A stretch of 42,792 nt of DNA, from positions 1-42,792 of IMG/VR virus record IMGVR_UViG_3300045988_177530. The stretch is one strand, 5' to 3'. The notes under the pieces were generated by a model. That model did not search any database, was not told the DNA's origin, and worked only from the letters and a program-made list of their open reading frames with translations. The position numbers were made by a program, and so were the translations under genes. The DNA comes from a virus. Within the stretch, counting starts at the first letter, position 1, and each line of letters starts with the position of its first letter. Positions 3,804-31,540 of the stretch are shown here, one piece after another.

Positions 3804-5720
3804 ATGGTCAGACCGTCACTATTACTTGACACGGCGCCACGAAACGGCGGCGGGCGCAATAATAATAATGTTATTGTTCAGCAATCCTCAGTATCATGGA
3901 CATACGGGAAAATCACCGGCACATCCGCCACCGACAGTACACTCCCGTCCGGCTGGGTAGAAGTAGGCATCCCCTACAGCAACCCAACCTCCCATGCTGT
4001 TGGCGAATCCGACGGTATTGCCACATGGATAGGCGCCCGCGTACTCGTTATCATTGACTCGTCCGGCCGTGTAGTTAAAATTAGCGACCCTATTGCCGAG
4101 CCGCCCTCCGGCGCAAAAGTCGAGAACCTCGGGCATACCGGTAAAATTCTCAGCCAGGCAGCGAAAGACGCTGAGCGCGCTTTCAGGGAAGCCGACGCAA
4201 TTCGCGACCGAGCGAACAAAGCCGAAGGTGCCGCGAACAAAGCGGCAAAAGACGCTGAAAAAGCTGTCCAGATTGCGGAAGCCAACCGGCCGCCTGTAGT
4301 GTCCCAAACCGTGCCCGAGAATCCTGTCACAGGGTTGATTTGGTATGTCACTGACAATGCTGGGCACATTACCGATGTGCGTATTTGGGATGGTACACAG
4401 TGGGTGACCAGGACAATGGTCGCTGGCAGCATTCTCGTCCCATCATCCGTGGGAAACGTCTCACTCGCTGACGGTTCTGTGTCTGCACGTAACATTTACG
4501 CGTCCGGGGAACTCTGGGCTAAAATTGCTGCGTTCGCGTCCGTCACCACGGAAATGCTGACCGCCGGAAACGCAACATTCAACGCAGCAAAGGTCACCGG
4601 CGACCTCATCGGTAACCGGCTTATCGGTGGTGAACTTTCGCTCGTTGATACTGAGCCGACGTCGGGCGAGAAGAATATTCGATTCGGCCTCGGCAGCGAA
4701 TACGAGTTCTGGGAGTCTATTTGGTCTCCCAAAATCGCGACCGTCGAGGAACTTGAAGGCGGTACACGGTTCGTTCTGACGGACAGGGACAGGCCTAATC
4801 GTAACGATGGCGCGCAGATGGCAATCTACGACATCGCTGTCGCGAAACCCAAAACATATGGTATTGCCGGCGAGGGCGTCGGCAAGGTCGAGGGGTATAT
4901 TCTTTTCACCCCGTCATGGAACGGCCGCGCGATTCTCACAATCAACATTGGCAAGAATAGAATCATCAGAGTTGACGAGCAGGCGACTGCCGGGCAGAAA
5001 ATAAGATTTGATTTTACGCTCCCCGACGGCGCGTGGATCCAAGACACTGACACGCCCTTCTACATTAGTGCCCGCACGAACGATGTTTTCACACCAGGGA
5101 TGCAGCTCGGAATCATTTATTCCATGTACGTGTCATGGAAAATGAGCCGCTCCTCCGGTCTGCATATTTTCCGCGACGACGAGGGTGTCGCGAAAATACA
5201 GATCACCGACCGCCAGGGCGGCGAGCTCATCATGGACACGAATGGCGTGTCCTACGACCCGCCAGGGTCGGCTTCGCCTCACGCGTCGTCGTGGCGTACT
5301 TTCACGGAGCCGCCTTTCGCCCACATGGCAACAAACAACGCACAATTGTGGACTAAAAAAGACGACTGGACTAGGGTTCCTGTGGGTTCGCAGGAGAAAA
5401 TTGTTCGCGGCGGAATGCAAGTCGATGGTGCAGAAATCATTATCCCACAGAGCGGGCTCTACCGTCTAGACGGCACAACATGGTACAGATCATCATGGGC
5501 GGGGTACGTGGGTGGCACAAGGGTCGCTCGCAGCAACGATGTTGAGTACGGCGTTTACATGTATGCCGCGTTGAACCATGGCCTGTGGACGGCGTTGCAG
5601 GTGACTGGTGTTAGGCGTTTGAATGTTGGGGATCGGATCGCGCTTTATACGTATCAGAATATTGACGAGGGTACAATTATGGATTGGGGCGAGATGACGG
5701 TTAGCTGGCTCACCTACTGA
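3804..5720 (+). CDS. Minor tail or tail fibre protein with a coiled-coil segment; receptor-binding candidate
   Basis: 638-aa ORF in the tail module. Heptad-like segment AAKDAERAFREADAIRDRANKAEGAANKAAKDAEKAVQIAEA. Confidence 0.6.
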   Translation: MVRPSLLLDTAPRNGGGRNNNNVIVQQSSVSWTYGKITGTSATDSTLPSGWVEVGIPYSNPTSHAVGESDGIATWIGARVLVIIDSSGRVVKISDPIAEPPSGAKVENLGHTGKILSQAAKDAERAFREADAIRDRANKAEGAANKAAKDAEKAVQIAEANRPPVVSQTVPENPVTGLIWYVTDNAGHITDVRIWDGTQWVTRTMVAGSILVPSSVGNVSLADGSVSARNIYASGELWAKIAAFASVTTEMLTAGNATFNAAKVTGDLIGNRLIGGELSLVDTEPTSGEKNIRFGLGSEYEFWESIWSPKIATVEELEGGTRFVLTDRDRPNRNDGAQMAIYDIAVAKPKTYGIAGEGVGKVEGYILFTPSWNGRAILTINIGKNRIIRVDEQATAGQKIRFDFTLPDGAWIQDTDTPFYISARTNDVFTPGMQLGIIYSMYVSWKMSRSSGLHIFRDDEGVAKIQITDRQGGELIMDTNGVSYDPPGSASPHASSWRTFTEPPFAHMATNNAQLWTKKDDWTRVPVGSQEKIVRGGMQVDGAEIIIPQSGLYRLDGTTWYRSSWAGYVGGTRVARSNDVEYGVYMYAALNHGLWTALQVTGVRRLNVGDRIALYTYQNIDEGTIMDWGEMTVSWLTY

Positions 5721-6899: not shown

Positions 6900-7889
6900 A
6901 TGACAAACGTTACTGGGTACACTAAGGCCGGCGTTGACAGGCTGGTCGCACCGCTATTCTCCTCGATCTCACCTTTCACGGTCGGCGGACACTACTACTC
7001 CCCGATCACGTATTTCTGGCCCGATTTCTACAACGAGGGTCAGGCCGGAAAGATCTCAAAATGGGCCAAGACACTGGCTTACGGGAATACTCTCGGCTAC
7101 GTGATCATGAACCGTTCCACAGGCGATTGGTCTGCCAAGGATAATGACTTTCTTACTCAGGCTCAGCGCGCCCGGGCAGCAGGGGTAAAGAGGATTCTCT
7201 GGTATATTCCTACCCGCTACGGTGTCGCGTCGCTCGCCAAGAATGATGCCGCTAGGAACGGCGTGCCCGACCCGGACAAGTTCACGCGCGAATACATCAT
7301 GCAACTGTGCGCCAACCTACGCTCCCAGTACGATGGTCTTTTCCAGGGAGTATTCTTGGACGAGGTAATCAACGGCTGGGGGGCACAGTCCGGACGGGTC
7401 GGTTGGTATGGTGATCTCGTCGGCGAAATTCGACGCACCTATGGCAAGAATTTTACAATCGCTATCAACCCTGGTAGCAATATTACTGAGGCCGTGTGCG
7501 CGCTCGATTTCGACGTGTGCATGAGTTTCGAGAACACTGCCGCCAAGTACTTGATGGATGACCCTAATAATCCGATTGCGAATGATGTGATGCGTGCGCA
7601 GCCGTCCACCAAGTGGTGGCATGTCATTCATGGGGTTACGAAAGAGAATTTCCGACAGGTAATCGATCGTGCCGCATCATTCGGTGTTTCACATTTGTAT
7701 GTGACCGACGGCGAGCTGGTGCAGGGTGAGGGCGGCCAGTGGGTGCCTGAGAAGAACCCTTACCAGAATCCTCCGTCGGATTGGATCATGGAACGCGTGG
7801 TCGCTTGGCATGGCGGCTACCTCGGTTTGGCTGAGCGTGTTGCCGCGTTGGAGGCAAAGGCGACCCCATCGCCGCAGCCTGGCGCCTGA
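6900..7889 (+). CDS. Putative glycoside hydrolase, spherulation-specific family 4-like; candidate exopolysaccharide or cell-wall glycan depolymerase
   Basis: 329-aa ORF, last gene of the tail module. By eye, YVIMNRSTGDW, ILWYIPTRYG and GVFLDEV resemble the conserved blocks of the spherulin-4 family. Not verified by search. Confidence 0.45.
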   Translation: MTNVTGYTKAGVDRLVAPLFSSISPFTVGGHYYSPITYFWPDFYNEGQAGKISKWAKTLAYGNTLGYVIMNRSTGDWSAKDNDFLTQAQRARAAGVKRILWYIPTRYGVASLAKNDAARNGVPDPDKFTREYIMQLCANLRSQYDGLFQGVFLDEVINGWGAQSGRVGWYGDLVGEIRRTYGKNFTIAINPGSNITEAVCALDFDVCMSFENTAAKYLMDDPNNPIANDVMRAQPSTKWWHVIHGVTKENFRQVIDRAASFGVSHLYVTDGELVQGEGGQWVPEKNPYQNPPSDWIMERVVAWHGGYLGLAERVAALEAKATPSPQPGA

Positions 7890-7890
7890 G

Positions 7891-7906
7891 TGTTTCACGT
7901 GAAACA
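7891..7906. promoter_or_regulatory. Perfect chromosomal-type parS site (ParB/Spo0J binding consensus), copy 1
   Basis: TGTTTCACGTGAAACA, a perfect 16-bp palindrome that starts 2 nt after the stop codon at 7887..7889. Confidence 0.7.
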
Positions 7907-7945
7907 TTCCCCCTCACCACGATTTCTGTGGTGAGGGGGAATGTT
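7903..7945. terminator. Bidirectional intrinsic-terminator-like hairpin between convergent gene blocks
   Basis: 18-bp perfect stem aacattccccctcaccac / gtggtgagggggaatgtt with a 7-nt loop. The left arm overlaps parS by 4 nt. Confidence 0.7.
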
Positions 7946-7965
7946 TTCGCGTCCGACACAGGAGA

Positions 7966-8433
7966 CTATAGTCCTAGGCGTTGGTAGTTTCCTCCGTGCT
8001 CGCGAGCAATATCGTCTAGGACGCCCATGAGATCGGAACGCGCATCGTCCTGAACGTCGATCGACGGTGAGTTCAGGATCGAGTGAATCGTGTTATTGAT
8101 CTCTCGGAATTGACGAGCAGCGATTGCGTCGCATTCTACACTGTCCCATCGCCGTGCTAGACGGCGCGCAAGATAAGACGTATTCTCACCGCTTGTTTTA
8201 TGGTAAACGCCTACAACATTCAATGGCCAGCCCCAGATGATCCATTTACTGAAAGTACCGCCGTCACCGTTTTCTACAGTGACGTCAATTCCAACACCCT
8301 TATGCTGGTCGTGCCACTTCAGATGAGCGGCCATGTGTGCTTCGTCAATGTCACATGCGTCGGGCTTCGGAAGCCACAACTGTGTGAGGCTGATCTCGTG
8401 CTCAATCTCCAGCATTGAGTTATTCGCTGTCAT
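7966..8433 (-). CDS. Hypothetical protein
   Basis: 155-aa ORF. Its start overlaps the upstream stop (ATGA at 8430..8433). Confidence 0.6.
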   Translation of the reverse strand: MTANNSMLEIEHEISLTQLWLPKPDACDIDEAHMAAHLKWHDQHKGVGIDVTVENGDGGTFSKWIIWGWPLNVVGVYHKTSGENTSYLARRLARRWDSVECDAIAARQFREINNTIHSILNSPSIDVQDDARSDLMGVLDDIAREHGGNYQRLGL

Positions 8434-8684
8434 GAGACGCTCCGCAAAAGTATGCTACAGCGCACTGCAGAATGGTTGGGGCCTTCGGACTCTCTGTGAG
8501 TCCATCCTGCTGAGACACCGCGCTTCGTCGTCACCACAACGCCGTCATCGGTGACCTCGATCTTTCCCGGCAAGCACTCAACGGTGGTGACTTTGCCGCG
8601 GTCGGAAATGCGAGGCGACGGGGTGATATTACGCAATTCCTTAACAATCGCCAACGCGATTTCCTGACGATCAATCTTGTCCAT
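8430..8684 (-). CDS. Hypothetical protein
   Basis: 84-aa ORF, translationally coupled on both sides. Confidence 0.5.
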   Translation of the reverse strand: MDKIDRQEIALAIVKELRNITPSPRISDRGKVTTVECLPGKIEVTDDGVVVTTKRGVSAGWTHRESEGPNHSAVRCSILLRSVS

Positions 8685-9202
8685 TATTCCACCTCCATAG
8701 CCGATGGTGTGACACCGACCTGTCCCTGATAATGCGACCCCAGACCGCCGGTGCCGTACGGCATACTGGCAGGCCTATCCAGATCCTCAAAAGCAATCTG
8801 CGCAATCCTATCCCCCGGATGAAGAATGGCGGGCTTGGTGGAGTGCAGGTTAGCGATCTCCAGGGTCACGTTTCCTTGGAATCCCGGGTCAATGTATCCC
8901 GCAGACACATGGACGAGAATTCCGCGTCGCGCCCACGACGACTTGCCCTCCACCCTGGCTACTAGGTCGGCAGGCACGCTCACTTTCTCCTGGGTGGACG
9001 CGAGAATAAACTCACCCGGCAATAACTCGTAACCATTCTCACCGATGGTGACATTCTCGTCACCGTGACGGTAGACGATAATGTTCTCGTCTAACCGCAC
9101 TTCTACCGACGCCGGTTGAATGGACAGCGGCTTATGCCAGTCAGAGATGAGTTCACCCCAATCGATTCTGCGTCGGAGAGTGAAATCACTCAGTGTAGCC
9201 AT
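8684..9202 (-). CDS. dcd: dCTP deaminase (dUTPase-fold family)
   Basis: 172 aa. Blocks EGKSSWARRGILVHVSAGYIDPGFQGNVTLEIAN and LHPGDRIAQIAF match the conserved Dcd/Dut-fold motifs (GKSS-aRlGl, aG-IDPGF-G-TLE). Confidence 0.75.
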   Translation of the reverse strand: MATLSDFTLRRRIDWGELISDWHKPLSIQPASVEVRLDENIIVYRHGDENVTIGENGYELLPGEFILASTQEKVSVPADLVARVEGKSSWARRGILVHVSAGYIDPGFQGNVTLEIANLHSTKPAILHPGDRIAQIAFEDLDRPASMPYGTGGLGSHYQGQVGVTPSAMEVE

Positions 9203-9656
9203 TCTGGCAGCTCCCGTCTTCGTTTTCCTTGATCATATGAACCTTGTAACCTTTATCGCACAGAATTGCTTTGGCTTCAAGAGCAAGGGCAGTCTTCTCT
9301 CCCGGGATGATTCCTACCGTGCCTCTACCGCGCTCTGACAGTACGATCGCACAGACGTACGCATTATCGTCCGATGAGTCGCTGTAAGTGAGCACATGCC
9401 CGCCTATCTCATCCGAATATGTGCACCTAGTAAAAGTAACTCTCCCTTCCTGCCATGAACGCAAGACAAGTGTTACTATCTGAATATGCTGCACGGTACG
9501 CATAAGCTCGCGGATCGCGGTGGACGGATCGGTCGAATAATTTCTGATAGTGAAGTTGCAGTCGGTGGCATGCATAAACGCGGCCGCGCCCCACAGTTCA
9601 CCACATTTCGCCAAATCAAAGAAAACAATCTCAACAACGTTCCCCATAATGCTCAC
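9186..9656 (-). CDS. Hypothetical protein
   Basis: 156-aa ORF in a tightly packed operon, with 4-nt and 17-nt overlaps to its neighbours. Confidence 0.55.
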   Translation of the reverse strand: MSIMGNVVEIVFFDLAKCGELWGAAAFMHATDCNFTIRNYSTDPSTAIRELMRTVQHIQIVTLVLRSWQEGRVTFTRCTYSDEIGGHVLTYSDSSDDNAYVCAIVLSERGRGTVGIIPGEKTALALEAKAILCDKGYKVHMIKENEDGSCQNGYTE

Positions 9657-10654
9657 TTTTCTTCCGGGATATAGTTGCTAAGGTGATCGTGTGAAATGGC
9701 GGATACGAACTCTGTGAGCCGGTCTCGAACCTCCCTGGCGCGATCCGCTGGGGCGAGCTGTCTATCGATAGTGTCCCAGTAGACGTTTCGCAGAATTGCG
9801 ATCACCGTCTGACCTCCCCGCTCTGCGGCGAGTTCACGCAGATACCACGCCGCCTTCCCCATATCAACATTCTCGTCGACACCATTCTTGTGACCTGCCC
9901 TGAAAATATACTTCAGGGCACTCCCGGTCAGATAGTCTTTGTCGCGAATGAAAGTGATGGGCTCAGGGTCGAGGGTTGCATAGTGTGACGGGTGAGTTAC
10001 CTCATTCTCATACGCATTATCCTCGACACGCCCGTCATTCTTCTCTGTGATATAGAGAGTGTCATCACACAAGGTCAACTCACAGTGCTGCTCGTCGAAC
10101 GTGAGAAACGCTCCCTCACCATTCTCACCCTTATACCAAATGCACCATTCGCCAGTGAAATACCGACAAACCTTCCTGACGGGCGCATCATAATCGTCGG
10201 AGACGCGGAAACGAATCGGTTCGTCCGTGAACTTCAACTCACAGCCAGGATCAATCTGATAGCCTACGATTCGCCGCCGATACCAACCGTCGCTCTTGTG
10301 CTCCAAATAAACACAACGACGACTCCAACATTCAATACGCCATTCACTACTAAGATAGCGGCGGACGTGCACCTCCCAAAACCCACCATGTGGCACTACC
10401 TTCAAAACATACTCATACACGCCATTCGGGTAGTAAATCTTCTCATACTCATCATCTACAGGTGACACAACATAATCTCCTCTTTTCGTCCGCGTGATCG
10501 AATAGTCGTTGTACTTGAAATAGTGTCTCCGCTCTACAGCACCCTGAACGGAATCGAAACCAATCCCCTTACTGTCGCCGGTTTGCGCTATGATTCTCTC
10601 TTTACTACCGTCCGGCAAGTACAGCCAAGCCGTCTTCAAAAACACCGTGTCCAT
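9653..10654 (-). CDS. DUF3310 (SaV / T7 gp1.7-like) domain protein with a long aromatic- and Cys-rich N-terminal extension
   Basis: C-terminal HPSHYATLDPEPITFIRDKDYLTGSALKYIFRAGHKNG...MGKAAWYLRELA matches the DUF3310 signature (HPSHY ... KY--R ... KA--YL). Confidence 0.6.
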   Translation of the reverse strand: MDTVFLKTAWLYLPDGSKERIIAQTGDSKGIGFDSVQGAVERRHYFKYNDYSITRTKRGDYVVSPVDDEYEKIYYPNGVYEYVLKVVPHGGFWEVHVRRYLSSEWRIECWSRRCVYLEHKSDGWYRRRIVGYQIDPGCELKFTDEPIRFRVSDDYDAPVRKVCRYFTGEWCIWYKGENGEGAFLTFDEQHCELTLCDDTLYITEKNDGRVEDNAYENEVTHPSHYATLDPEPITFIRDKDYLTGSALKYIFRAGHKNGVDENVDMGKAAWYLRELAAERGGQTVIAILRNVYWDTIDRQLAPADRAREVRDRLTEFVSAISHDHLSNYIPEEK

Positions 10655-10672
10655 AGCCGTTTTCTCGCTATT

Positions 10673-11002
10673 TCAGTTGCCGAGAGTGCCGACCGTGGCA
10701 AAGTAGGCGAAGAATACTTGGAGCCACCAAAAAGCACGCCACGCCAGAGACAGTCCGATAACTCCGATGATGAGGGCGACTGCACCCATGACCATGCCTT
10801 CGCCAGTGGACCGCGGCTTGCGGAGCCATGTTACGAAACGATTCGTAGGGCGCGGCGGCGCCATCGCACTGAGCGGCACAGACCATGCGGGGGGCGCCGG
10901 GGTAGGCCGAGGCGGCGGAGGAGGTGCGGGGGTAGGCGCGCTAGTCGCGGGCGGAGGAGGCGCGGGAGTAGGCGCCGACGGGGCACTCGAAAAAGTAGAC
11001 AT
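10673..11002 (-). CDS. Pro-rich membrane protein
   Basis: 109 aa. N-terminal APTPAPPPP-type repeats, then hydrophobic helices GMVMGAVALIIGVIGLSLAW and WWLQVFFAYFATVG. Confidence 0.5.
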   Translation of the reverse strand: MSTFSSAPSAPTPAPPPPATSAPTPAPPPPPRPTPAPPAWSVPLSAMAPPRPTNRFVTWLRKPRSTGEGMVMGAVALIIGVIGLSLAWRAFWWLQVFFAYFATVGTLGN

Positions 11003-11014
11003 AATAGTTGTTCC

Positions 11015-11203
11015 TCACTTTCCGTTCAGTTCTGCCATGAGACGGTTAGTCCAACCGTCACTGTAGTTGAAATTCGTGCGCTTAGTGTGACGTGCGCTCT
11101 TGATTCTCTTCGCCCGATTCCTCTTGTGCTCTTGAAACTCGATCGTCTTGTGACGGACCTCGTTCTCGCGTCCGTCCATACGTTGAATAGCGGGGTATTT
11201 CAT
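11015..11203 (-). CDS. Small basic hypothetical protein
   Basis: The ATG at 11203 overlaps the upstream stop (ATGA). 62 aa, rich in K/R. Confidence 0.45.
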   Translation of the reverse strand: MKYPAIQRMDGRENEVRHKTIEFQEHKRNRAKRIKSARHTKRTNFNYSDGWTNRLMAELNGK

Positions 11204-11595
11204 GATTTGACCCACTCGATTCCGTCGCCGAGAAGCCCACGCAGATCATTGATCAGGTTATGCGCGTTCCCAAATTCCTCCTCGGCGATATCGAAAACTC
11301 TGTAAACGTTCCCTTCAGTGCAGACGACCAGGAAGGAATTGTGGGCGCATTCGGGGACGAAAACATTGCGGACGTTTCCGATGAGGGCGGGCCGCTGAAC
11401 AGGAATTGCCTGTACGAGGTCGGCCCCAGTGAGAACTGCGACGGCAGTCACCCGCTCAACCGGGATGCCCCGAAATTCGTTCTCACCTTTCTCATACCCC
11501 TTTGCGGGGAAGTGAATCTTGGTGCCCTTCAGATTGGTGAATATGGCACCTCCCGTAGTTTTGCATGATCCGTATCCGGTGCGACGGCGTGCCAT
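11200..11595 (-). CDS. Hypothetical protein
   Basis: 131-aa ORF preceded on the minus strand by GAGAAGAGGATTACT ATG. Confidence 0.55.
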   Translation of the reverse strand: MARRRTGYGSCKTTGGAIFTNLKGTKIHFPAKGYEKGENEFRGIPVERVTAVAVLTGADLVQAIPVQRPALIGNVRNVFVPECAHNSFLVVCTEGNVYRVFDIAEEEFGNAHNLINDLRGLLGDGIEWVKS

Positions 11596-11632: not shown

Positions 11633-11668
11633 TGGTGGTGGCCCGTCGCCCATGACGGGCCACCACCA
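11633..11668 (-). terminator. Hairpin downstream of the 98-aa acidic gene
   Basis: 15-bp perfect stem tggtggtggcccgtc / gacgggccaccacca with a 6-nt loop, 12 nt beyond the stop at 11680. Confidence 0.5.
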
Positions 11669-11679
11669 TTATGCGTGTG

Positions 11680-11976
11680 TCAGTGCTCCAGCCACTGTTC
11701 AGCCAGGTAGGCGATGGTCTCGTCAGTCAGGGCGGAAAGTCCTTCGTGGGCGATGGTGAATCCGTCGGCGTCGTACTGCCAGAGTCCCCAGGAGACGACG
11801 TCGTCGCACACGTGGAGTCCGAGCGCCTGCCCGCCGTCGGTGGTGCTTCGCTTGAGGCCGATGGTCTCGCCGGTCTCGTTCACCCAGTAGTCCGTGTCGC
11901 CCCAAGCGTTGGCGGCGGTGCCGACGGCGTAGGCGATGTCGGTGTCGGTGGTGATGCTCTCAATGGTGGTGGTCAT
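11680..11976 (-). CDS. Small, strongly acidic hypothetical protein
   Basis: ATG at 11976 preceded by GAGAGGACAAG. 98 aa with 17 D/E against 2 K/R by my count. The longer 201-aa ORF has no ribosome-binding-site support. Confidence 0.6.
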   Translation of the reverse strand: MTTTIESITTDTDIAYAVGTAANAWGDTDYWVNETGETIGLKRSTTDGGQALGLHVCDDVVSWGLWQYDADGFTIAHEGLSALTDETIAYLAEQWLEH

Positions 11977-12229
11977 TGTCTTGTCCTCTCTATCCCCGGC
12001 TGGGTGGCTTGTCCTCCCTGCCGATGTCTTAATCATGCTCCCCCGTGCGCCATGGGTCAACCCTACGCAACGGTGACCCATCCCACCAAACCAATGTTGT
12101 GCGGAGTATTGACAGACACTGGGCACATGTGGTACACGCGCACGCACGTACCTATATGTATCGAGAAGACACTCGGGCGTCCATGATAAAATTAAGCCAC
12201 CGAAAACCTTTACGAAAGGCGGTGCAAAA

Positions 12230-13678
12230 TTGGCAAATTCCGTCACAGAATATGCTGCGTCGGAAATGAAATATTGGTGCACCACAGGCGACTACGGGGG
12301 TACCGGTTATGCCCAGGATAACCGGTGGACCTGCTACTGGAATAGCAATGATGCCGGCTGGAAAACGGGCCCCGGCGACATGGATTGCAGTAGCGGCGTA
12401 GCGGGCGCCTACAATATTGCATTCCACAATGTCTGGGGAACCGGCTGGGACGACCCGATCATGTTCCCGCGGACCGGCGAAACATGGACAGAAACCCTGA
12501 ATTCCCTGGCCGCAAATCGCGGTTTCATGGATATCGGGGACACTTGGTATGGGTCCACTCCGTCGGGAGGATTCCATGTCGGCGACATGGTCCTGAAAAC
12601 TACCGGAGACGGCGGACATGTCGCAATGTGCGTGCGCGAAGACGACGGCTCATTCAACGCGGGCGATCCGCTTCTCGCTGAGGCGTGGATTAACGAGAAT
12701 GGTGACATTTCGGAAGGTCAGATGGGGGATCAGACCGGCTACGAAACTCACGTAGTCCGGTACAGTAGTCACCCGATGACTGTCGCGGCCTCATGGTCCA
12801 CATGCATCCGTTTCGGAAAGAGGACTGACTCCGATAACGGCCATGAGTCTGCCGGCTCGTACCGCCTTTCCTCTATTCAGGAGGCTGTTCTCAGGGCCGC
12901 CGATGCAGAGAATTGTCCGTGGTGGGCCGCCTTGGCGTGCTTGTGGATGGAGACCGGCGAACGTGGCGCGAACATTTATGGTCACGACGCCGGCGGTGCC
13001 GGGCCGCACGGTGAGGAAGTAACCGAGGAGAATTTCCGCGAATTCCTTGCGGCAATTCGAGACGGTGAAACCTCGAACGGCGTTGGTCCGCTGCAGATCA
13101 CGTATTCGGGCTATTTCTTGCAGGATCCGGATCGTGAATGGTGGATGCCGGAGAAGTCGGCTGAGGTTGGCTGCCGTATTCTTCGTGACCTTATTAACGC
13201 TGAAGGCGATTCTTATGAGGCTTTGAAGCGTGTTGGGTCGCGGTATAATTCAGGGAATCCGTATGACGCGTATGAGTCTTATGGGATTCTTTTCAGTAAT
13301 CGTTGCAAGTCTTGGTATGATTATGGTCGTCCGTCTGGGGGCGCCGGAGAGGAATTTTGGGATATGAGCGAGGGCGTTGATCTGCTCAGGGAGATTCGCG
13401 ATCTTTTCCGCAGTGGAAAGGCGGGGGATCATTTCGCGGGCGACATGAATTGGTACGCTAAGGCCACCTATGAGGAGGTCAAGTCCATTCACGCGTCCGT
13501 GGATCAGATTCTGCATTCTGTGACTCCGGGTCAGGAGAATGTTCGTGAGGCGGGCGCGATTTATGGTGCTGTGAACGAGATTCGTAAGGCCGTGTCGACG
13601 CCGTCGTCTTTGCAGGCGCATGATGGTGTTGTAGGGTCTCCCGTTCCCGAGTCTCCTGCCCCGGAGCAGAATTCCTGA
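12230..13678 (+). CDS. Endolysin with an N-terminal cysteine amidase/peptidase (Amidase_5/CHAP-like) domain and a central lytic-transglycosylase-like domain
   Basis: 482 aa. GDMDCSSGVAGAY ... GDMVLKTTGDGGHVAMC forms a Cys/His pair. LWMETGERGANIYGHD ... NGVGPLQITYSGY is SLT-like. Confidence 0.7.
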   Translation: MANSVTEYAASEMKYWCTTGDYGGTGYAQDNRWTCYWNSNDAGWKTGPGDMDCSSGVAGAYNIAFHNVWGTGWDDPIMFPRTGETWTETLNSLAANRGFMDIGDTWYGSTPSGGFHVGDMVLKTTGDGGHVAMCVREDDGSFNAGDPLLAEAWINENGDISEGQMGDQTGYETHVVRYSSHPMTVAASWSTCIRFGKRTDSDNGHESAGSYRLSSIQEAVLRAADAENCPWWAALACLWMETGERGANIYGHDAGGAGPHGEEVTEENFREFLAAIRDGETSNGVGPLQITYSGYFLQDPDREWWMPEKSAEVGCRILRDLINAEGDSYEALKRVGSRYNSGNPYDAYESYGILFSNRCKSWYDYGRPSGGAGEEFWDMSEGVDLLREIRDLFRSGKAGDHFAGDMNWYAKATYEEVKSIHASVDQILHSVTPGQENVREAGAIYGAVNEIRKAVSTPSSLQAHDGVVGSPVPESPAPEQNS

Positions 13679-13804
13679 CACGGAATGTTGGCATTTATCG
13701 CGGCCTGTTCGCTCGCTGTTATGCTGGGTGTCGTTCCACGATAGATGTAACATGCGGGGAGCTTCACTCTCTTCCCTCTCCGTGATCTCCTGTGGTAGTG
13801 GTAG

Positions 13805-13849
13805 AGCGAGTCTCCGGACGGCCAATGAATGATCGTCCGGAGACTCGCT
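13805..13849 (+). terminator. Intrinsic terminator after the endolysin gene
   Basis: 16-bp perfect stem agcgagtctccggacg / cgtccggagactcgct, followed by ttgttg. Confidence 0.65.
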
Positions 13850-13934
13850 TTGTTGCGTGCTATACTTCTCTACGTACCGCTTATTGGTTAATACACAAAT
13901 ATTTTCCTACGCGTTCCGACGGTGCAATAAGAGA

Positions 13935-14008
13935 ATCCTATCGCCCTCATGTTTTCCTACACACATTAACCCAACATGCTCTAGGAATCGGCATGAGGGC
14001 GATAGGAT
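13935..14008 (+). promoter_or_regulatory. 17-bp perfect inverted repeat whose 3' arm covers the likely ribosome-binding site of the next gene
   Basis: atcctatcgccctcatg (13935..13951) pairs with catgagggcgataggat (13992..14008). The downstream ATG is at 14021. Confidence 0.35.
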
Positions 14009-14020
14009 ACAATCCATCCA

Positions 14021-14251
14021 ATGAAAGTGAAAATTAGAGTGACTAAGTCGCTTTATGTTGCCATCATTTTTGCGGCCGTTATGGTGACGGCAAACACTGC
14101 GCTCATGGTGTACGAAGATTTCACCAATGGCACTATGAACGTGACTCGCGATTCTCTGTGGTGTGTTGGCGCGATTATTCTTTGGGTCAGCGTACGCACC
14201 GTACGGTTCATGCGGACCGTCGGCTATCACCCTGGCTTCCACAGAAAGTAA
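14021..14251 (+). CDS. Small membrane protein with 2 predicted TM helices; lysis-cassette member
   Basis: 76 aa. Hydrophobic segments LYVAIIFAAVMVTANTALMVY and LWCVGAIILWVSV. Confidence 0.5.
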   Translation: MKVKIRVTKSLYVAIIFAAVMVTANTALMVYEDFTNGTMNVTRDSLWCVGAIILWVSVRTVRFMRTVGYHPGFHRK

Positions 14252-14258
14252 CTAAAAC

Positions 14259-14305
14259 ATAACATTCCCCGCCCAGCAATGATGACGCTAGGCGGGGAAT
14301 GTTAT
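14259..14305 (+). terminator. Terminator-like hairpin
   Basis: 15-bp stem ataacattccccgcc / ggcggggaatgttat with a 17-nt loop. It shares the AACATTCCCC/GGGGAATGTT arms with the hairpin at 7903. Confidence 0.5.
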
Positions 14306-14363
14306 ATAATTCCTATTGCAGCCCCGCAAGGTAATCACAACAAAAGAGGACATTAGATATACG

Positions 14364-14732
14364 ATGCTTAATTTCTTGAATGATGTTCTCTCTGACGCCA
14401 CCCTAGTAGCTTTGGCCGCTCTCACCGGCACAATTTTCTCTAACGTAACGCAGCGCAAGAATGCTCGCGACCAGGAACAGATCTCAATCCTGGACATTAC
14501 CGTCCGATCTCTTTCCGAGAGAGTGACCGCCCTGGAGGCCAGTCTTGCGGCCGCCGAAAGAGCGGCAGACCTGGCAGAAGATGGCCGCCGTCGGGCTGAA
14601 GTGAAGTGGTGGGAGGCGGTCTCTTTCGCGCACACTGTCCTCGATTGGGGGCGGTCTCTGAAAATTCTGATACCATCTGATAAAGAGGACTCAATCCCTA
14701 CTGAGCCTCAAATTCCAGATTCCATGAGGTGA
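14364..14732 (+). CDS. Membrane-anchored coiled-coil protein in the lysis cassette
   Basis: ATG at 14364 preceded by aaagagga (the alternative TTG at 14316 is less likely). N-terminal ATLVALAALTGTIFSNV, then LEASLAAAERAADLAEDGRRRAE. Confidence 0.5.
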   Translation: MLNFLNDVLSDATLVALAALTGTIFSNVTQRKNARDQEQISILDITVRSLSERVTALEASLAAAERAADLAEDGRRRAEVKWWEAVSFAHTVLDWGRSLKILIPSDKEDSIPTEPQIPDSMR

Positions 14733-14741
14733 TTCATAAAT

Positions 14742-14978
14742 ATGTTTACTCCTGAGGTCCGCAAGGCCCTTTATGCCCTGCTCACCGCTGTTCTCGGTGT
14801 TTTCGCCGCTTTCAATGTTATTTCCGCGGACCAGGCGTCTCAGTACGCTGACGCTGTTACCCAGATTGTTGGTGCTCTGACTCTGGCGCTGGCTACGTAT
14901 CACACTCACCCCGCTGTGACGCCCGGCCGTCACGCCGCCGGTGATGGCGAGGCCGCCAACGAGGACAAGGTCGCCTGA
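14742..14978 (+). CDS. Putative holin with 2 TM helices
   Basis: 78 aa. ALYALLTAVLGVFAAFNVI and AVTQIVGALTLALATY, with a charged C-terminus. Last gene of the lysis cassette. Confidence 0.55.
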   Translation: MFTPEVRKALYALLTAVLGVFAAFNVISADQASQYADAVTQIVGALTLALATYHTHPAVTPGRHAAGDGEAANEDKVA

Positions 14979-14994: not shown

Positions 14995-15040
14995 AACATT
15001 ACTGCCCCCTACCGGATAGTCGGTGGGGGGCAGTAATGTT
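14995..15040. terminator. Bidirectional terminator-like hairpin
   Basis: 20-bp stem aacattactgccccctaccg / cggtggggggcagtaatgtt with one G-T pair and a 6-nt loop. The right arm overlaps parS copy 2 by 4 nt. Confidence 0.7.
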
Positions 15041-15052
15041 TCACGTGAAACA
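15037..15052. promoter_or_regulatory. Perfect chromosomal-type parS site, copy 2
   Basis: TGTTTCACGTGAAACA. Confidence 0.7.
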
Positions 15053-15061
15053 CGGGAGACA

Positions 15062-15077
15062 TGTTTCACGTGAAACA
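15062..15077. promoter_or_regulatory. Perfect chromosomal-type parS site, copy 3
   Basis: TGTTTCACGTGAAACA, 25 bp centre-to-centre from copy 2. It ends 1 nt before the stop codon of the RuvC-like gene (15079..15081). Confidence 0.7.
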
Positions 15078-15078
15078 T

Positions 15079-15579
15079 TCACCTCCGCTCCGTGTCGTCA
15101 CCGATGATGCGGGCGATCACACCCTCGTCGTGGCGTTTAGTGACTGCCCACAGGAAAAGATGACGCCCCGCGTCCCGTGCGTCGTCCGCGTCCGGCTGGC
15201 CCACGTCAGTTCCTGTGGGCCAAAAACCAAGAATTTTCAGAACGTTATCGTGCATGGTTGTTTTTGCCATTGCGGGAGTCTGCCATACGATATCCCCGAT
15301 CTCCCATTCCAGTATAGAGTTGATTTTTACTGGGGTGAGGTCTGCGAGAAAATTGTTGCCAGGTCGAAGATCGAACTGTTCACACACGACAATGTCTGGG
15401 GCGAATTCGTTTCGTGTGGCCAGAATGTCGTAGGCGCTGGCCGTCCAATGCTCATACTTGAATTGCTGAACATGAATGATTGAGAATTCGCGGTCGTCGT
15501 GGAAGTCTCCGATGACGATTCCTGTTGACTTGCCGGGATCAACGGCCATCACCCGCTGCATCATACTTTTCCCCCTCAT
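15079..15579 (-). CDS. RuvC-like Holliday junction resolvase
   Basis: 166 aa. AVDPGKSTG, VVCEQF and DADDARDAGRH match the RuvC-fold acidic catalytic motifs. The start could instead be the internal MMQRV. Confidence 0.7.
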   Translation of the reverse strand: MRGKSMMQRVMAVDPGKSTGIVIGDFHDDREFSIIHVQQFKYEHWTASAYDILATRNEFAPDIVVCEQFDLRPGNNFLADLTPVKINSILEWEIGDIVWQTPAMAKTTMHDNVLKILGFWPTGTDVGQPDADDARDAGRHLFLWAVTKRHDEGVIARIIGDDTERR

Positions 15580-16624: not shown

Positions 16625-16640
16625 CTCTCTTCCTTATTGG

Positions 16641-16684
16641 GTTGAATAGCGGGGGCAACAATCATGTTGCCCCCGCTATTCAAC
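16641..16684. terminator. Very strong hairpin between two minus-strand genes
   Basis: 20-bp perfect stem gttgaatagcgggggcaaca / tgttgcccccgctattcaac with a 4-nt loop. Confidence 0.55.
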
Positions 16685-16701
16685 CTATGCGACCATGTGT
16701 G

Positions 16702-17292
16702 TCAGAAAACTACCGACCACGAGGTATCGGTATTCTTTTTGGCCTCGAAATCAATGGAAGAAATCTCCGCCCTAGGAGGCCAGAACGCGGGCTTCGGAGC
16801 GCCATCCTCACCGAGAACTGTGACACCGTTCTCGTCCTGCTCGTATGCGGGGCGACCATAATCGTCAAGACGAGGCCTGGGCTTGCTCATTCGCGTCACC
16901 AATGTTGCGTGAGCGCCCTCCAGATTCTCGCACACTTTCTTCACGGTCGTATCGATCTTCTGCGGTGAGAGAAGATCGGCCCTCTCCTTGGCGTCGGCCG
17001 GCCAAAGACCAGCGGCGCTGAAATACTTCGGAATATTGAAGTGAATGAAAGTCTTTCCATTCTTGTTGATAGTGAAAACTGTGCGGTCAGTGAGCGCCTT
17101 TCCGGCATCCTCATCATCGCCGTCAATCATCCAATCGGTGACAAGCATCGGCCTGCCACTCTTGGAAGTGGTCATTTCAGCCTTAGTGATGAATGCTGAG
17201 TGCTTTCCGGGCTTGGGCGGCTCGAAGTTACCTCCGCCGGTGGCGACTTCCAGTGATGAGAGGTCGGTTCCAAAGTTGAAGCCAGTTGCCAT
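16702..17292 (-). CDS. DUF669-like protein; putative ssDNA-binding partner of the Sak4-type ATPase
   Basis: 196 aa. The N-terminal NFEPPKPGKHSAFITKAEMTTSKSGRPMLVTDW resembles the DUF669 signature. AGGAG lies 10 nt upstream. Adjacent to the AAA ATPase gene. Confidence 0.5.
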   Translation of the reverse strand: MATGFNFGTDLSSLEVATGGGNFEPPKPGKHSAFITKAEMTTSKSGRPMLVTDWMIDGDDEDAGKALTDRTVFTINKNGKTFIHFNIPKYFSAAGLWPADAKERADLLSPQKIDTTVKKVCENLEGAHATLVTRMSKPRPRLDDYGRPAYEQDENGVTVLGEDGAPKPAFWPPRAEISSIDFEAKKNTDTSWSVVF

Positions 17293-17337
17293 AATTATTG
17301 TGCTCCTATAAGTCGGTGGTAAAGAATCGCGGTTGGA

Positions 17338-21187: not shown

Positions 21188-21271
21188 TGAAATTCGTCCA
21201 AACAATCACTAGAAGACAAATGGTGAGCGTGAACGCTAGTAGTGCCACTTGTTTTTCCTCTTTTCCGTACA

Positions 21272-21309
21272 ACGACCCCCGTCCCATTGCTCGGTGGGAC
21301 GGGGGTCGT
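21272..21309. terminator. Hairpin downstream of the 79-aa acidic gene
   Basis: 15-bp perfect stem acgacccccgtccca / tgggacgggggtcgt with an 8-nt loop. Confidence 0.5.
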
Positions 21310-21318
21310 TCTATCGCG

Positions 21319-28455: not shown

Positions 28456-28475
28456 CCCGACCGGTCCGAGGACGA

Positions 28476-28513
28476 CTGAGGCCCCACCCTCCACGACGAG
28501 GGTGGGGCCTCAG
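28476..28513 (+). terminator. Intrinsic-terminator-like hairpin
   Basis: 15-bp perfect stem ctgaggccccaccct / agggtggggcctcag with an 8-nt loop, 20 nt after the stop. Confidence 0.6.
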
Positions 28514-28583
28514 TGCGTCTACTGTGGAAGGGCGGTGTGCGATGGGGGGTGTCGGCCGCCACGGCGCCTATCTTTCACAGTTT

Positions 28584-29014: not shown

Positions 29015-29204
29015 TTTAGGGAATACGTGTTATGACGTAATTAAGGGCACACAGTGTTCAATGTTGAGTACTGTTACCGTTGACAACGAACAGTGTGTGG
29101 TGGGAACAACAAACATTGTGTGATGGATGCAACAAGCATTACATATGATGCTGCACACACACCACCAAGTAAACACACACAAACACAAAGGCGCGTGTCG
29201 TGCT

Positions 29205-29237
29205 ACGTGTGTGCTCGCAGAGCTGCGCGCACACTAC
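29205..29237 (+). repeat. 33-nt hairpin-forming element followed by a polypurine tract, copy 1, upstream of the HNH gene
   Basis: acgtgtgtgctcgcagagctgcgcgcacactac. 29 of 33 nt are identical to 29851..29883. An A/G tract follows at about 29254..29296. Confidence 0.7.
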
Positions 29238-29393
29238 ACGACACACGCCAACCCAAAACAAAAAAGAAGAAAAACAAGAAAAGAAAAAAGAAAGAGTAGT
29301 GTTAGACGGTGGAGGCGCTCGTCTCGCTGACGCTGCGACGCGCCACCACCTAACACAAAACAAGAAAAGCGACAAGAGAAGAGGAGAATAACG

Positions 29394-29738
29394 GTGAGCA
29401 GAACAAGCACGCGAGAACACCGGCAATTCAGAAAACAAGTACTCGCCAGAGCACAAGCCATGGGCATCACACACTGCCCAGCATGCGGAGTCAAACTCCA
29501 ATACAACAATAACGGTAAACGCAAACCCAACAGCGCCGAAGCCGACCACATAATCCCAGCCTCGTTAGGCGGAACCAATCACCCAGACAACGGCAGAATC
29601 CTCTGCGCCAGATGCAACAGCAGACGAGGCAACGGACGAGGAGGCAAAGGAAGAGCACGCCACTACCAAAAAAACGAAGACGAACGAGACAGACTCCCTA
29701 TTGCTGTCATGCCCACCGAACACTCTGACACATGGTGA
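29394..29738 (+). CDS. HNH endonuclease, terminase-associated type
   Basis: GTG start preceded by GAGAAGAGGAGAATAAC. HCPACG ... ADHIIPASLGG ... DNGRILCARCNSRRGN. Confidence 0.85.
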   Translation: MSRTSTREHRQFRKQVLARAQAMGITHCPACGVKLQYNNNGKRKPNSAEADHIIPASLGGTNHPDNGRILCARCNSRRGNGRGGKGRARHYQKNEDERDRLPIAVMPTEHSDTW

Positions 29739-29850
29739 CCCCCCCGCCATTCCAAACACAGAAAGGCGGAACGCGAAAAAGCGAGGAGAAAGGAAGAGAG
29801 AATAGCAAGAGAGCAGCAAGAGACAAGAAACACAATGGTGTTCGGGGATA

Positions 29851-29883
29851 ACGTGCGTGCTCGCGGGGCTGCGCGCGCACTAC
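29851..29883 (+). repeat. 33-nt hairpin-forming element followed by a polypurine tract, copy 2, downstream of the HNH gene
   Basis: acgtgcgtgctcgcggggctgcgcgcgcactac. An A/G tract follows at about 29896..29935. Confidence 0.7.
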
Positions 29884-30585
29884 CCCGAACACCAACAAGA
29901 CAAAGAGAAGAAGAAGGAAAACAGAGAAAGACAAACAACAAGACCACCACACCTTCGCACACACCACCATTCCATCCAACACAAACCATCACCGCCATTC
30001 CACAATGACACAACCCTGTCACAAAACACGCCACTAAACCAACAATGCTGTGACAGCAAACACACTGAAGGGTGGGGTGATGCAAGAAGGCAGGACAATA
30101 CAAGGCGCCAGACCCAACCCGAACACGGGACATCACAACACACCCCCCGTCATTCAACACGGCCACCACGCAAACAGAAAGGGGACACCAATACTAAACA
30201 AGGGGGACACCACACGCAACGGGAGGGCCACCATCACAACACCCGCCCCTTCAACACTATGCCACCCCACCTCGCCATGCCCCCCGCCATTCACGATGGC
30301 CGCCCCCTCCACCACTATGAGGGGGGAGCAGACAAAGGACACCCGTCACACGAACACCACAGACACACACACCACCCACACACCACACACCCGACAGAGA
30401 ATAGTGCACGACACGACAACAGCACCGACGAATACTGCACTGGGAAGAGTAGGACAAGGGCCGGACTACACGCACTGGACGGACCAACAGCACACACCAC
30501 CGCCATTCCACACACCACACACGAGAGGATGGACACCATCCACCCACCCACTCTCACACTATTCACATTCACACAACCAACGAAC

Positions 30586-30685
30586 GATCACGATCAACAA
30601 TGATCAACGATCAATGTTCGATCAACAATCAACGAACAATGAACAATGAACATGATAATGATCAATGATGATGAACATGATCAAC
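30586..30685 (+). repeat. Seven GATC-containing heptamers (GATCAAY/GATCAC) within 100 bp, followed by GAT/ATG trinucleotide runs
   Basis: GATC at 30586, 30592, 30602, 30609, 30620, 30660 and 30679. ATGAACATGAT occurs three times. This is locally the most A+T-rich part of the region. Confidence 0.8.
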
Positions 30686-30749
30686 ATGATGAACATGATG
30701 ATGATTACAACGATGATGATGTGATGCATGACATGCATACCAATACCAT

Positions 30750-30765
30750 GCACCATGCATGGTGC
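30750..30765. promoter_or_regulatory. 16-bp perfect palindrome GCACCATGCATGGTGC
   Basis: Read directly from the sequence. Two further ATGCAT hexamers lie just upstream. Confidence 0.6.
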
Positions 30766-30806
30766 CAACACATGCCACAAAGGCAACACGCAACGCACAA
30801 ACGCAC

Positions 30807-30859
30807 AAAAACGCATAAAAACAAAAGAAATGTTACAAAAACATGCAAAAACATTCAAA
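30807..30859 (+). other. Six helically phased A-tracts; predicted intrinsic DNA bend
   Basis: A-runs start at 30807, 30817, 30828, 30837, 30847 and 30857, a spacing of about 10 bp. Confidence 0.7.
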
Positions 30860-31087
30860 GGCACGAATCAAACAATGGCGTTCAAAAAAACCATGGCAAC
30901 AAAACAAGGCGAACACAAGGGGGGCCCCAAGACAGTAAGGGATCCCTTAAACACGGGACCCATGTCACAAAACAAGACGAGGGTTGGACGAAACGAGACG
31001 CACACCACACAATTTACGTGATGGGGGCCACTCCCCCTCCCCCATCCGGCCACGAACACCCCGAAGGTCTGCCCATCCCTCCCTGCT

Positions 31088-31228
31088 TGTGGAAAACCCT
31101 GTGGATAACTCCAGTAACCCAGACCACAGTGTGACTGCCATCATGTGGAAAACTCCCCAACCTGTGGAAAACCCTGTGGAAAACTCAGACAGCTTGTGGA
31201 AAACCCTGTGGAAAACCCCGTGGGAACA
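31088..31228 (-). repeat. Array of seven DnaA-box-like 9-mers plus one degenerate copy, all in one orientation
   Basis: TGTGGAAAA (reverse complement TTTTCCACA) at 31088, 31144, 31163, 31175, 31195 and 31207. TGTGGATAA (reverse complement TTATCCACA) at 31100. Degenerate gtgggaac at 31220. Confidence 0.6.
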
Positions 31229-31258
31229 TGACGAACATCACAGCATATAATAATAAAC

Positions 31259-31540
31259 ATGACAACCCACACAAACACCACAATCACCGTATACGAACCA
31301 AACAGCCCCGCACCAATCACAGACGCCACAAACACAGGCAACCCAACACTCATCCGCCAAGCACTCGCACACAAAATCGCCACCGTCATAGACGACCCAC
31401 GAACAGGCGACACAGCACTCACAAAACTCACCGCACAACTCATACAAATCACAGACCAACTCGCCACAACACAAAACGAAAACACACAAACACCCCCCCC
31501 CGACATTCCAAACGAAACACAAACCTGGGACGGCATCTAA
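31259..31540 (+). CDS. Hypothetical protein; possible small terminase subunit
   Basis: 93-aa ORF ending 1 nt before the terL ATG, with plausible helical segments. It lies in a stop-poor region and has no clear ribosome-binding site, so coding status is uncertain. Confidence 0.4.
   Translation: MTTHTNTTITVYEPNSPAPITDATNTGNPTLIRQALAHKIATVIDDPRTGDTALTKLTAQLIQITDQLATTQNENTQTPPPDIPNETQTWDGI

Follow-up and report, generated by a model that had tools for sequence, protein, structure and literature searches.

Three chromosome-type parS sites on an oral siphovirus genome as probable loading sites for host ParB

The window, which is the whole 42,792-nucleotide stretch of viral DNA that was analyzed, carries three exact copies of a 16-bp palindrome that is the consensus binding site of ParB/Spo0J. 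These copies are probably loading sites for the chromosomal ParB of the host, kept by a phage without partition genes of its own. Their purpose is probably to let the host ParB handle phage DNA like a chromosome origin. This reading is drawn from the exactness and number of the sites, their near-complete invariance among relatives, and the recurrence of the same 16-mer in unrelated phage families.

The sites and their genomic setting

An end-to-end comparison of the window found positions 1-55 identical to positions 42738-42792; therefore, the window is a circularly closed assembly (~42.7 kb, 52-60% G+C). The 55-nt end overlap was probably introduced by the assembler, from a genome that is circular or circularly permuted. 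A long open reading frame (ORF), presumably the tape-measure gene, spans the end junction. Near-identical contigs originate from human oral metagenomes. Judged by its gene content, the virus is a siphovirus with actinophage affinities. The best relative of its large terminase (31542-33035) is that of Rothia phage Spartoi, followed by those of Arthrobacter and Propionibacterium freudenreichii phages; by this protein, Spartoi is also the nearest isolate, and at 50% amino acid identity it is too distant to name a host. A megablast search with 12 kb of the window returned no close DNA relative among GenBank phages. Rfam and tRNA scans revealed no RNA genes in the window.

The main features are collected in Table 1. 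The leftward replication block that starts at 15079 encodes the RuvC-like protein, an AAA_24 ATPase, an exonuclease, an SNF2 helicase, and a DUF3987 primase/helicase. A candidate receptor-binding protein (3804-5720, + strand) was labelled TNF-like by other annotators (TPA MAG records). The receptor-binding-protein cluster at 90% identity contains 1,547 member sequences, and the phage is therefore common in the human mouth. One of these members lies on a contig of 53,984 nt, which is longer than the phage genome.

The region before the terminase gene has several features of its own. From 29100 to 31540, over 2.4 kb, the + strand is strongly T-poor (AT skew up to 0.50, GC skew -0.30). Convincing genes are few there; short A/C-rich repeats are numerous (e.g., CCCCCCGCCATTC, with four copies), and ATGAACATGAT is repeated in a run. 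A small ORF in this region (29394-29738, + strand), approximately 1.8 kb 5' of the terminase gene, resembles an HNH endonuclease by eye (CPACG...HIIPASLGG...CARCN). The large terminase gene (31542) and a small ORF are closely preceded, at 31079-31230, by approximately seven copies of CTGTGGAAAAC (or CTTGTGGAAAAC) within 150 nt. This repeat array may be a terminase/packaging recognition array or an origin.

Table 1. Positions of the parS sites, adjoining hairpins, and principal genes and gene blocks in the window
Feature	Position	Strand or direction	Description
parS-1	7891..7906		Exact 16-bp ParB/Spo0J consensus palindrome TGTTTCACGTGAAACA
parS-2, tandem copy 1	15037..15052		Exact consensus TGTTTCACGTGAAACA
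parS-3, tandem copy 2	15062..15077		Exact consensus TGTTTCACGTGAAACA; ends one base short of the stop codon of the RuvC-like gene
Hairpin T1	7902..7946		19-bp stem (7902-7920 / 7928-7946), 100% complementary, 7-nt loop
Hairpin T2	14995..15040		20-bp arms, 95% complementary, 6-nt loop; between convergent genes
Inverted repeat of the tandem pair	15035..15079		18-bp arms (15035-15052 / 15062-15079); foldable as a second hairpin beside T2
Structural and tail genes	across window ends to 7889	rightward
Spherulin4-like gene	6900..7889	+	329 aa; closes the structural/tail block; PF12138, E = 5.6e-14
Block with dCTP deaminase and DUF3310 protein	7966-11595	leftward
155-aa protein	7966..8433	-	No assigned function; terminal gene of the dCTP deaminase block, converging on T1
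Lysis cassette	11671-14978	rightward	ELLD endolysin and holin
Endolysin	12230-13678	+	PF25309
Holin-like gene	14742..14978	+	End of the lysis cassette; PF23809, E = 3e-6
RuvC-like resolvase family gene	15079..15579	-	Terminal gene of the replication/recombination block; phrog_1981, E = 1.9e-24; phrog_159, E = 1.6e-5

A preliminary description of this DNA had identified the 16-mer at 7891 as an exact ParB/Spo0J consensus, and this identity was confirmed. TGTTTCACGTGAAACA is the ParB-site consensus as quoted in PMC10197239, it is the same palindrome as the chromosomal ParB site of mycobacteria (PMC2346475), and it matches the chromosomal-type parS consensus TGTTNCACGTGAAACA at 16/16 positions. 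That description had also counted three copies, more than chance would give, and both points hold. The window contains TGTTTCACGTGAAACA exactly three times, and dinucleotide shuffles of the window gave a mean of 0.17 sites, with 0/100 shuffles reaching three. No further TGTTTCACGTGAAACA-like site with up to three mismatches was found elsewhere in the window. On the strength of this match and this count, the 16-mers can be taken as genuine parS-type sites and not as chance occurrences. The site had been placed just behind a stop codon, as is indeed the case: the TGA of ORF 6900-7889 is followed by one base (G, 7890), after which parS-1 begins. Two things were left out of that description, namely the second locus with its tandem pair at T2 and the precedent of phi29.

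All three parS sites are intergenic and are confined to two places where genes converge, each beside a strong GC-rich hairpin. The tandem pair occupies the gap in which the holin gene (stop at 14978) and the leftward RuvC-like gene (stop at 15079) converge, 7.1 kb from parS-1. Transcription reads through parS-1 from the rightward tail block alone and through parS-2 and parS-3 from the leftward replication block alone. The genes neighboring the two loci encode the tail protein, the 155-aa protein, the holin, and the RuvC-like protein; parA and parB are not adjacent.

Conservation and adjoining hairpins

Relatives were collected as 61 loci anchored on the tail gene at 6900-7889 (89-96% amino acid identity) and 57 loci anchored on the primase gene. 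A search of relatives for the same 16-mer, which the preliminary description had put forward as a check, recovered parS-1 in 61/61 of them amid drifting flanks. In nine of these, a change confined to the outermost base spares the 14-bp core GTTTCACGTGAAAC. Of the 49 primase-anchored loci that extend to the tandem pair, 45 have both copies and 4 have one. No other parS-like site with up to two mismatches was found in 943 kb of related sequence.

Values of nucleotide diversity (pi) were obtained from 60 unique sequences for the parS-1 region and from 41 unique relatives for the tandem-pair region. The 14-bp core of parS-1 is invariant (pi 0), and the cores of parS-2 and parS-3 have pi of 0.004 and 0.007, respectively. 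The hairpin stems have pi of 0.07-0.09 (0.086 for the T2 stem), and the 24 nt 3' of T1 have 0.24. Higher values are found at third codon positions upstream (0.37), in the spacer between the tandem parS copies (0.43; 6-10 nt long), and in the hairpin loops (0.54 for T1 and 0.55 for T2). In the T1 alignment, the parS columns never change, unlike some pairs of the T1 stem, which are preserved in relatives through double changes (T-A to C-G, C-G to T-A, and A-T to G-C). Because the cores are invariant or nearly so while the loops, spacer, and third codon positions vary freely, the alignments indicate selection on the parS sequence itself and not on pairing, which is the signature of a protein-recognition site.

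Three relatives have an extra parS beyond T1 (L019 at 11043, L047 at 11048, and L050 at 7909), which produces the order parS-hairpin-parS and suggests that the palindrome can be copied across the T1 stem. No parS was found in the integrase-bearing relatives of the tail and lysin genes (L194 and L195) or in the temperate Rothia phage Spartoi. Likewise, none was found in the approximately 20 kb examined of distant endolysin-family phages (GC 60-68%) or integrase-bearing tail-gene phages. The sites are therefore specific to this lineage.

The hairpins are physically joined to the sites. The left arm of T1 contains the last 5 nt of parS-1 (AAACA), and the right arm of T2 ends in TGTT, the first bases of parS-2. 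The predicted RNA fold of T1 has an energy of -43.5 kcal/mol on the + strand (z = -8.8) and -40.0 kcal/mol on the - strand (z = -7.1). T1 lies between convergent genes and is likely a bidirectional intrinsic terminator. The full stem is followed by four U on the + strand and by zero on the - strand, and a simple terminator scan gave no call because the + strand has so few U; terminators of actinobacteria often have no U-tails. At the second locus, the tandem parS pair forms an 18-bp stem of its own because a palindrome repeated directly is at the same time repeated in inverted orientation. T2 and the tandem-pair hairpin fold together with -58.5 kcal/mol (z = -11.2).

In the preliminary description, the last 4 nt of the site were shared with the left arm of an 18-bp terminator stem. 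The sharing itself was found as described, whereas the overlap is 5 nt and the stem 19 bp. From this overlap, it had been proposed that ParB binding or cruciform extrusion competes with terminator folding, a proposal that is unsupported. An overlap of 5 nt gives no direct competition because an intrinsic terminator folds in the nascent RNA and ParB binds duplex DNA. Moreover, phi29 shares the layout, and adjacency to hairpins is not enriched in a broader sample of phage parS. In that sample of 160 exact parS on 120 unrelated IMG/VR contigs, 6% of the sites are next to a perfect stem of at least 8 bp versus 4% of random intergenic positions, by a hairpin measure that is crude. Terminator adjacency as a general rule for phage parS was rejected on this result.

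That parS lies beside terminators is best explained by economy of space in a compact genome. The sites fill two of the few sizeable non-coding gaps, each is crossed by only one of the converging units, and the ends of the palindrome, AACA/TGTT, double as the stem base.

Other hairpins are present in the genome. A third strong hairpin (14259-14305, 19-bp arms) lies within the lysis cassette; its stem base AACATTCCCC...GGGGAATGTT is similar to the bases of T1 and T2, and no parS adjoins it. The three hairpins may have a common origin. A degenerate parS beside this AACATT-based hairpin was considered and judged unconvincing. Four more perfect or near-perfect hairpins of 15-21 bp occur at 16640-16685, 21268-21313, 28475-28514, and 11633-11668. 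These are probably terminators, and none has a parS.

The presumed reader and the rival explanations

ParA, ParB (PF02195 ParBc), integrase, recombinase, and HTH repressor were not found among 40 ORFs compared with Pfam, 20 of which were also compared with PHROGs. The genome looks lytic, as judged from the absence of integrase and repressor matches in the scanned ORFs. Approximately half of the early ORFs, including some small ones, have no Pfam or PHROG match, and the three largest unannotated proteins have no relatives in the PDB. Homologues of the endolysin and receptor-binding protein are all on metagenomic phage contigs. Among 185,579 species-representative genomes, no relatives of the endolysin and large terminase, as would mark a prophage copy, were found. 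Sporulation is not known from oral actinobacteria.

The gene content is actinophage-like, and the actinobacteria that have been studied use exactly this 16-mer (PMC2346475, PMC7083940), which may not be the parS of this host. Corynebacterium glutamicum has ten B. subtilis-like 16-bp parS sites, which were confirmed by ParB ChIP-seq (PMC7083940). In this species, one parS is enough for loading of ParB and SMC, and a single parS gives a ParB zone of approximately 32 kb and SMC-dependent chromosome folding (PMC7083940). Since no phage ParB was found in the ORFs scanned and the 16-mer is the chromosomal ParB site of mycobacteria, the simplest reader of the 16-mers would be the host ParB. The same reading is supported by the fact that unrelated phage families, including phages of non-sporulating hosts, share the same 16-mer.

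The main rival accepts the same binding and gives it another purpose. The sites would bind host ParB in order to titrate it, with three sites on each of many replicating genomes, and would thereby disturb segregation, division, or SMC loading in the host, or they would recruit SMC to compact or resolve phage concatemers. The cis evidence for such a sink is the same as for partition by host ParB, the genome looks lytic with no integrase or repressor found, and the finding that one parS is sufficient for ParB and SMC loading in C. glutamicum (PMC7083940) suits it as well. Computationally, the two purposes are inseparable. Nothing, however, favors takeover over partition. Segregation is indicated by phi29, the one experimentally studied case (PMC2731898), and an episomal inovirus with six sites fits maintenance better. 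Takeover is therefore regarded as unlikely, while it deserves more weight than any of the explanations that follow.

The remaining explanations dispense with ParB. The 16-mer could be the operator of an unrecognized phage DNA-binding protein, with its parS identity coincidental or mimetic, and the half of the early ORFs that lack matches leave room for such a protein. Coincidence, however, is very unlikely to yield agreement with the universal parS consensus at 16/16 positions, and the sites are at the 3' ends of operons and not at promoters. No HTH or ParB domain was detected in the ORFs scanned, and the occurrence of the same 16-mer in phi29-like phages, an inovirus, and phage Voltaire points to a shared host factor, which makes an operator improbable. 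Still less probable is that the palindromes are mere structural parts of terminators or of RNA-stabilizing 3' hairpins. The sites do adjoin or extend strong hairpins, the tandem pair folds into a stem, and a T-run follows the tandem pair of Voltaire. Against this, purely structural stems covary, while the parS columns never change even though some T1 pairs do; a hairpin arm needs no palindrome of its own; five other strong hairpins in the genome have no parS; and a lone parS 16-mer folds weakly (-3.9 kcal/mol), the same as its shuffles. A neutral relic, that is, host DNA acquired by chance or a chance occurrence, has in its favor only that phages can acquire host DNA. It is contradicted already by the conservation data, with invariant cores amid variable flanks, by the presence of three copies at two loci that none of the 100 shuffles reproduced, and by the independent gain of an extra parS beyond T1 in L019, L047, and L050, and it can hardly be entertained.

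Loading of host ParB for the partition of phage DNA thus remains the preferred reading, and the following course of events is proposed. ParB-CTP dimers of the host would load on intracellular phage DNA at 7891 and at 15037/15062 and would then spread. Spreading could cover much or most of the 42.7-kb genome because the ParB zone per parS in C. glutamicum is approximately 32 kb (PMC7083940) and the window sites are 7.1 kb apart. The phage DNA would then be treated as a chromosome-origin region, with ParA determining its position and segregation and with possible loading of SMC. As a result, unintegrated phage genomes would be kept by both daughter cells whenever lysis is put off, for example in a carrier state or in biofilm cells that are slow or dormant. 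By analogy with phi29, the benefit is likely the retention and inheritance of unintegrated genomes.

A broader and more tentative hypothesis is that host-type parS without par genes represents a general, unrecognized persistence strategy of phages in non-sporulating bacteria. Host ParABS would actively partition the oral actinophage as an unintegrated episome, so that a carrier state would be inherited although lysogeny genes are absent, and siphoviruses, phi29-like podoviruses, myoviruses, and filamentous phages would each have come to the strategy independently. In this general form, the hypothesis is possible and rather doubtful. The question addressed is the persistence of phages that lack lysogeny genes in dense communities of slow growth, dental plaque among them, and the host centromere conserved on this abundant oral phage gives a concrete and testable way into it. 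The sites of the window also take the idea derived from phi29 and Spo0J beyond spore-formers and podoviruses. For ParB biology, such phages provide natural experiments in which parS is located on small, heavily transcribed replicons.

Comparison with other known systems and with phi29

A BLAST search with an extended palindrome returned 340 GenBank phage records with a parS-like 17-20-mer. They include relatives of phi29, Clostridium perfringens podoviruses, Lactobacillus plantarum phages of ~140 kb, and phages of Microbacterium, Gordonia, and Arthrobacter. One of the phages with exact sites is Glutamicibacter phage Voltaire, whose actinobacterial host is presumably non-sporulating. Voltaire (OV696617.1) has an exact tandem parS at 8742 and 8761, with the copies 3 nt apart, intergenic and followed by TTTTT, and this pair could itself be a terminator hairpin. 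Like the window, it has an intergenic tandem of exact parS; it differs in being a phi29-like phage with a 3-nt spacer and a single locus. Bajarodino virus 6 (PQ006135.1), a member of Inoviridae with a 5.9-kb genome, has six exact parS at 635, 662, 1414, 2857, 4096, and 5628. Three of the six lie directly after stop codons, and the record annotates no par gene. Nine unrelated low-GC IMG/VR contigs have 2-4 exact parS each and are mostly phi29-like podoviruses; ParB is not among the matches listed for these nine contigs (25 of 27 matched families). In the literature searched, no description was found of host-type parS on actinophages without par genes, and the parS of Voltaire and other GenBank phages are undescribed there, so they serve as parallels and not as characterized systems. 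These occurrences suggest that parS is much more widespread on phages than the literature searched describes.

P1, N15, Cluster A mycobacteriophages, and A15 Gordonia phages are temperate, with repressors, and have partition cassettes in which ParA, ParB, and the parS sequence are all the element's own. They share with the window a centromere-like site on the phage genome (PMC7157519, PMC5559632, PMC8612146). In the parABS phages, this site is central, where integrating relatives carry the integrase, and its presumed role is extrachromosomal inheritance, as proposed for the window. In contrast to these cassettes, no parA, parB, or repressor was found in the window phage, and its site is of the host-chromosome-type consensus. 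The parS clusters near oriC on the chromosomes of B. subtilis, mycobacteria, and C. glutamicum consist of the same 16-bp palindrome, with several copies within a few kb that are mostly intergenic (PMC2346475, PMC7083940). The window sites differ from them in being on a virus, away from oriC and parAB, and fused to terminator hairpins.

The closest parallel is phi29. Its genome is reported to have five parS sites (PMC2731898, citing Meijer et al. 2005; PMC9437464), and published evidence indicates that, with the lytic cycle suspended by Spo0A, the phage uses the host Spo0J to bring its genome into the prespore (PMC2731898; PMC9437464). A scan of the phi29 genome (NC_011048.1) found TGTTTCACGTGGAACA at 10445, 15903, 17243, and 18760, i.e., four sites, three of which are inside genes. 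The site at 17243-17258 starts directly behind the stop codon (TAA) of the last late gene, gene 16, and ends 3 nt before the bidirectional terminator TD1 (17262-17301). No mention of this adjacency was found in the passages of phi29 literature examined. The order of stop codon, parS, and terminator is the same as at parS-1 of the window, and economical placement is therefore suggested here too.

Like the window phage, phi29 is classed as lytic, has no partition genes of its own, and carries multiple host-type parS sites whose presumed reader is the host ParB homologue. The retention proposed for the window phage parallels the way in which host Spo0J and phage parS help to trap the phi29 genome in the prespore. 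The two phages are otherwise very different. The host of phi29, a protein-primed podovirus of 19 kb, is a sporulating Firmicute, whereas the window phage comes from the human mouth and is a siphovirus of 42.7 kb whose genes are of actinophage type. In phi29, the sites have the B. subtilis form TGTTTCACGTGGAACA and are mostly genic; in contrast, the window sites are perfect palindromes, all intergenic, and two of them are in tandem. The benefit to phi29, entrapment in the spore in combination with Spo0A boxes, cannot carry over unchanged to a non-sporulating host. By analogy, the window phage belongs to a known kind, that of phi29-type use of host ParB, and the idea itself is not new. What is probably new is its occurrence in an unrelated siphovirus with actinophage-type genes, in the human mouth and in a host that probably forms no spores.
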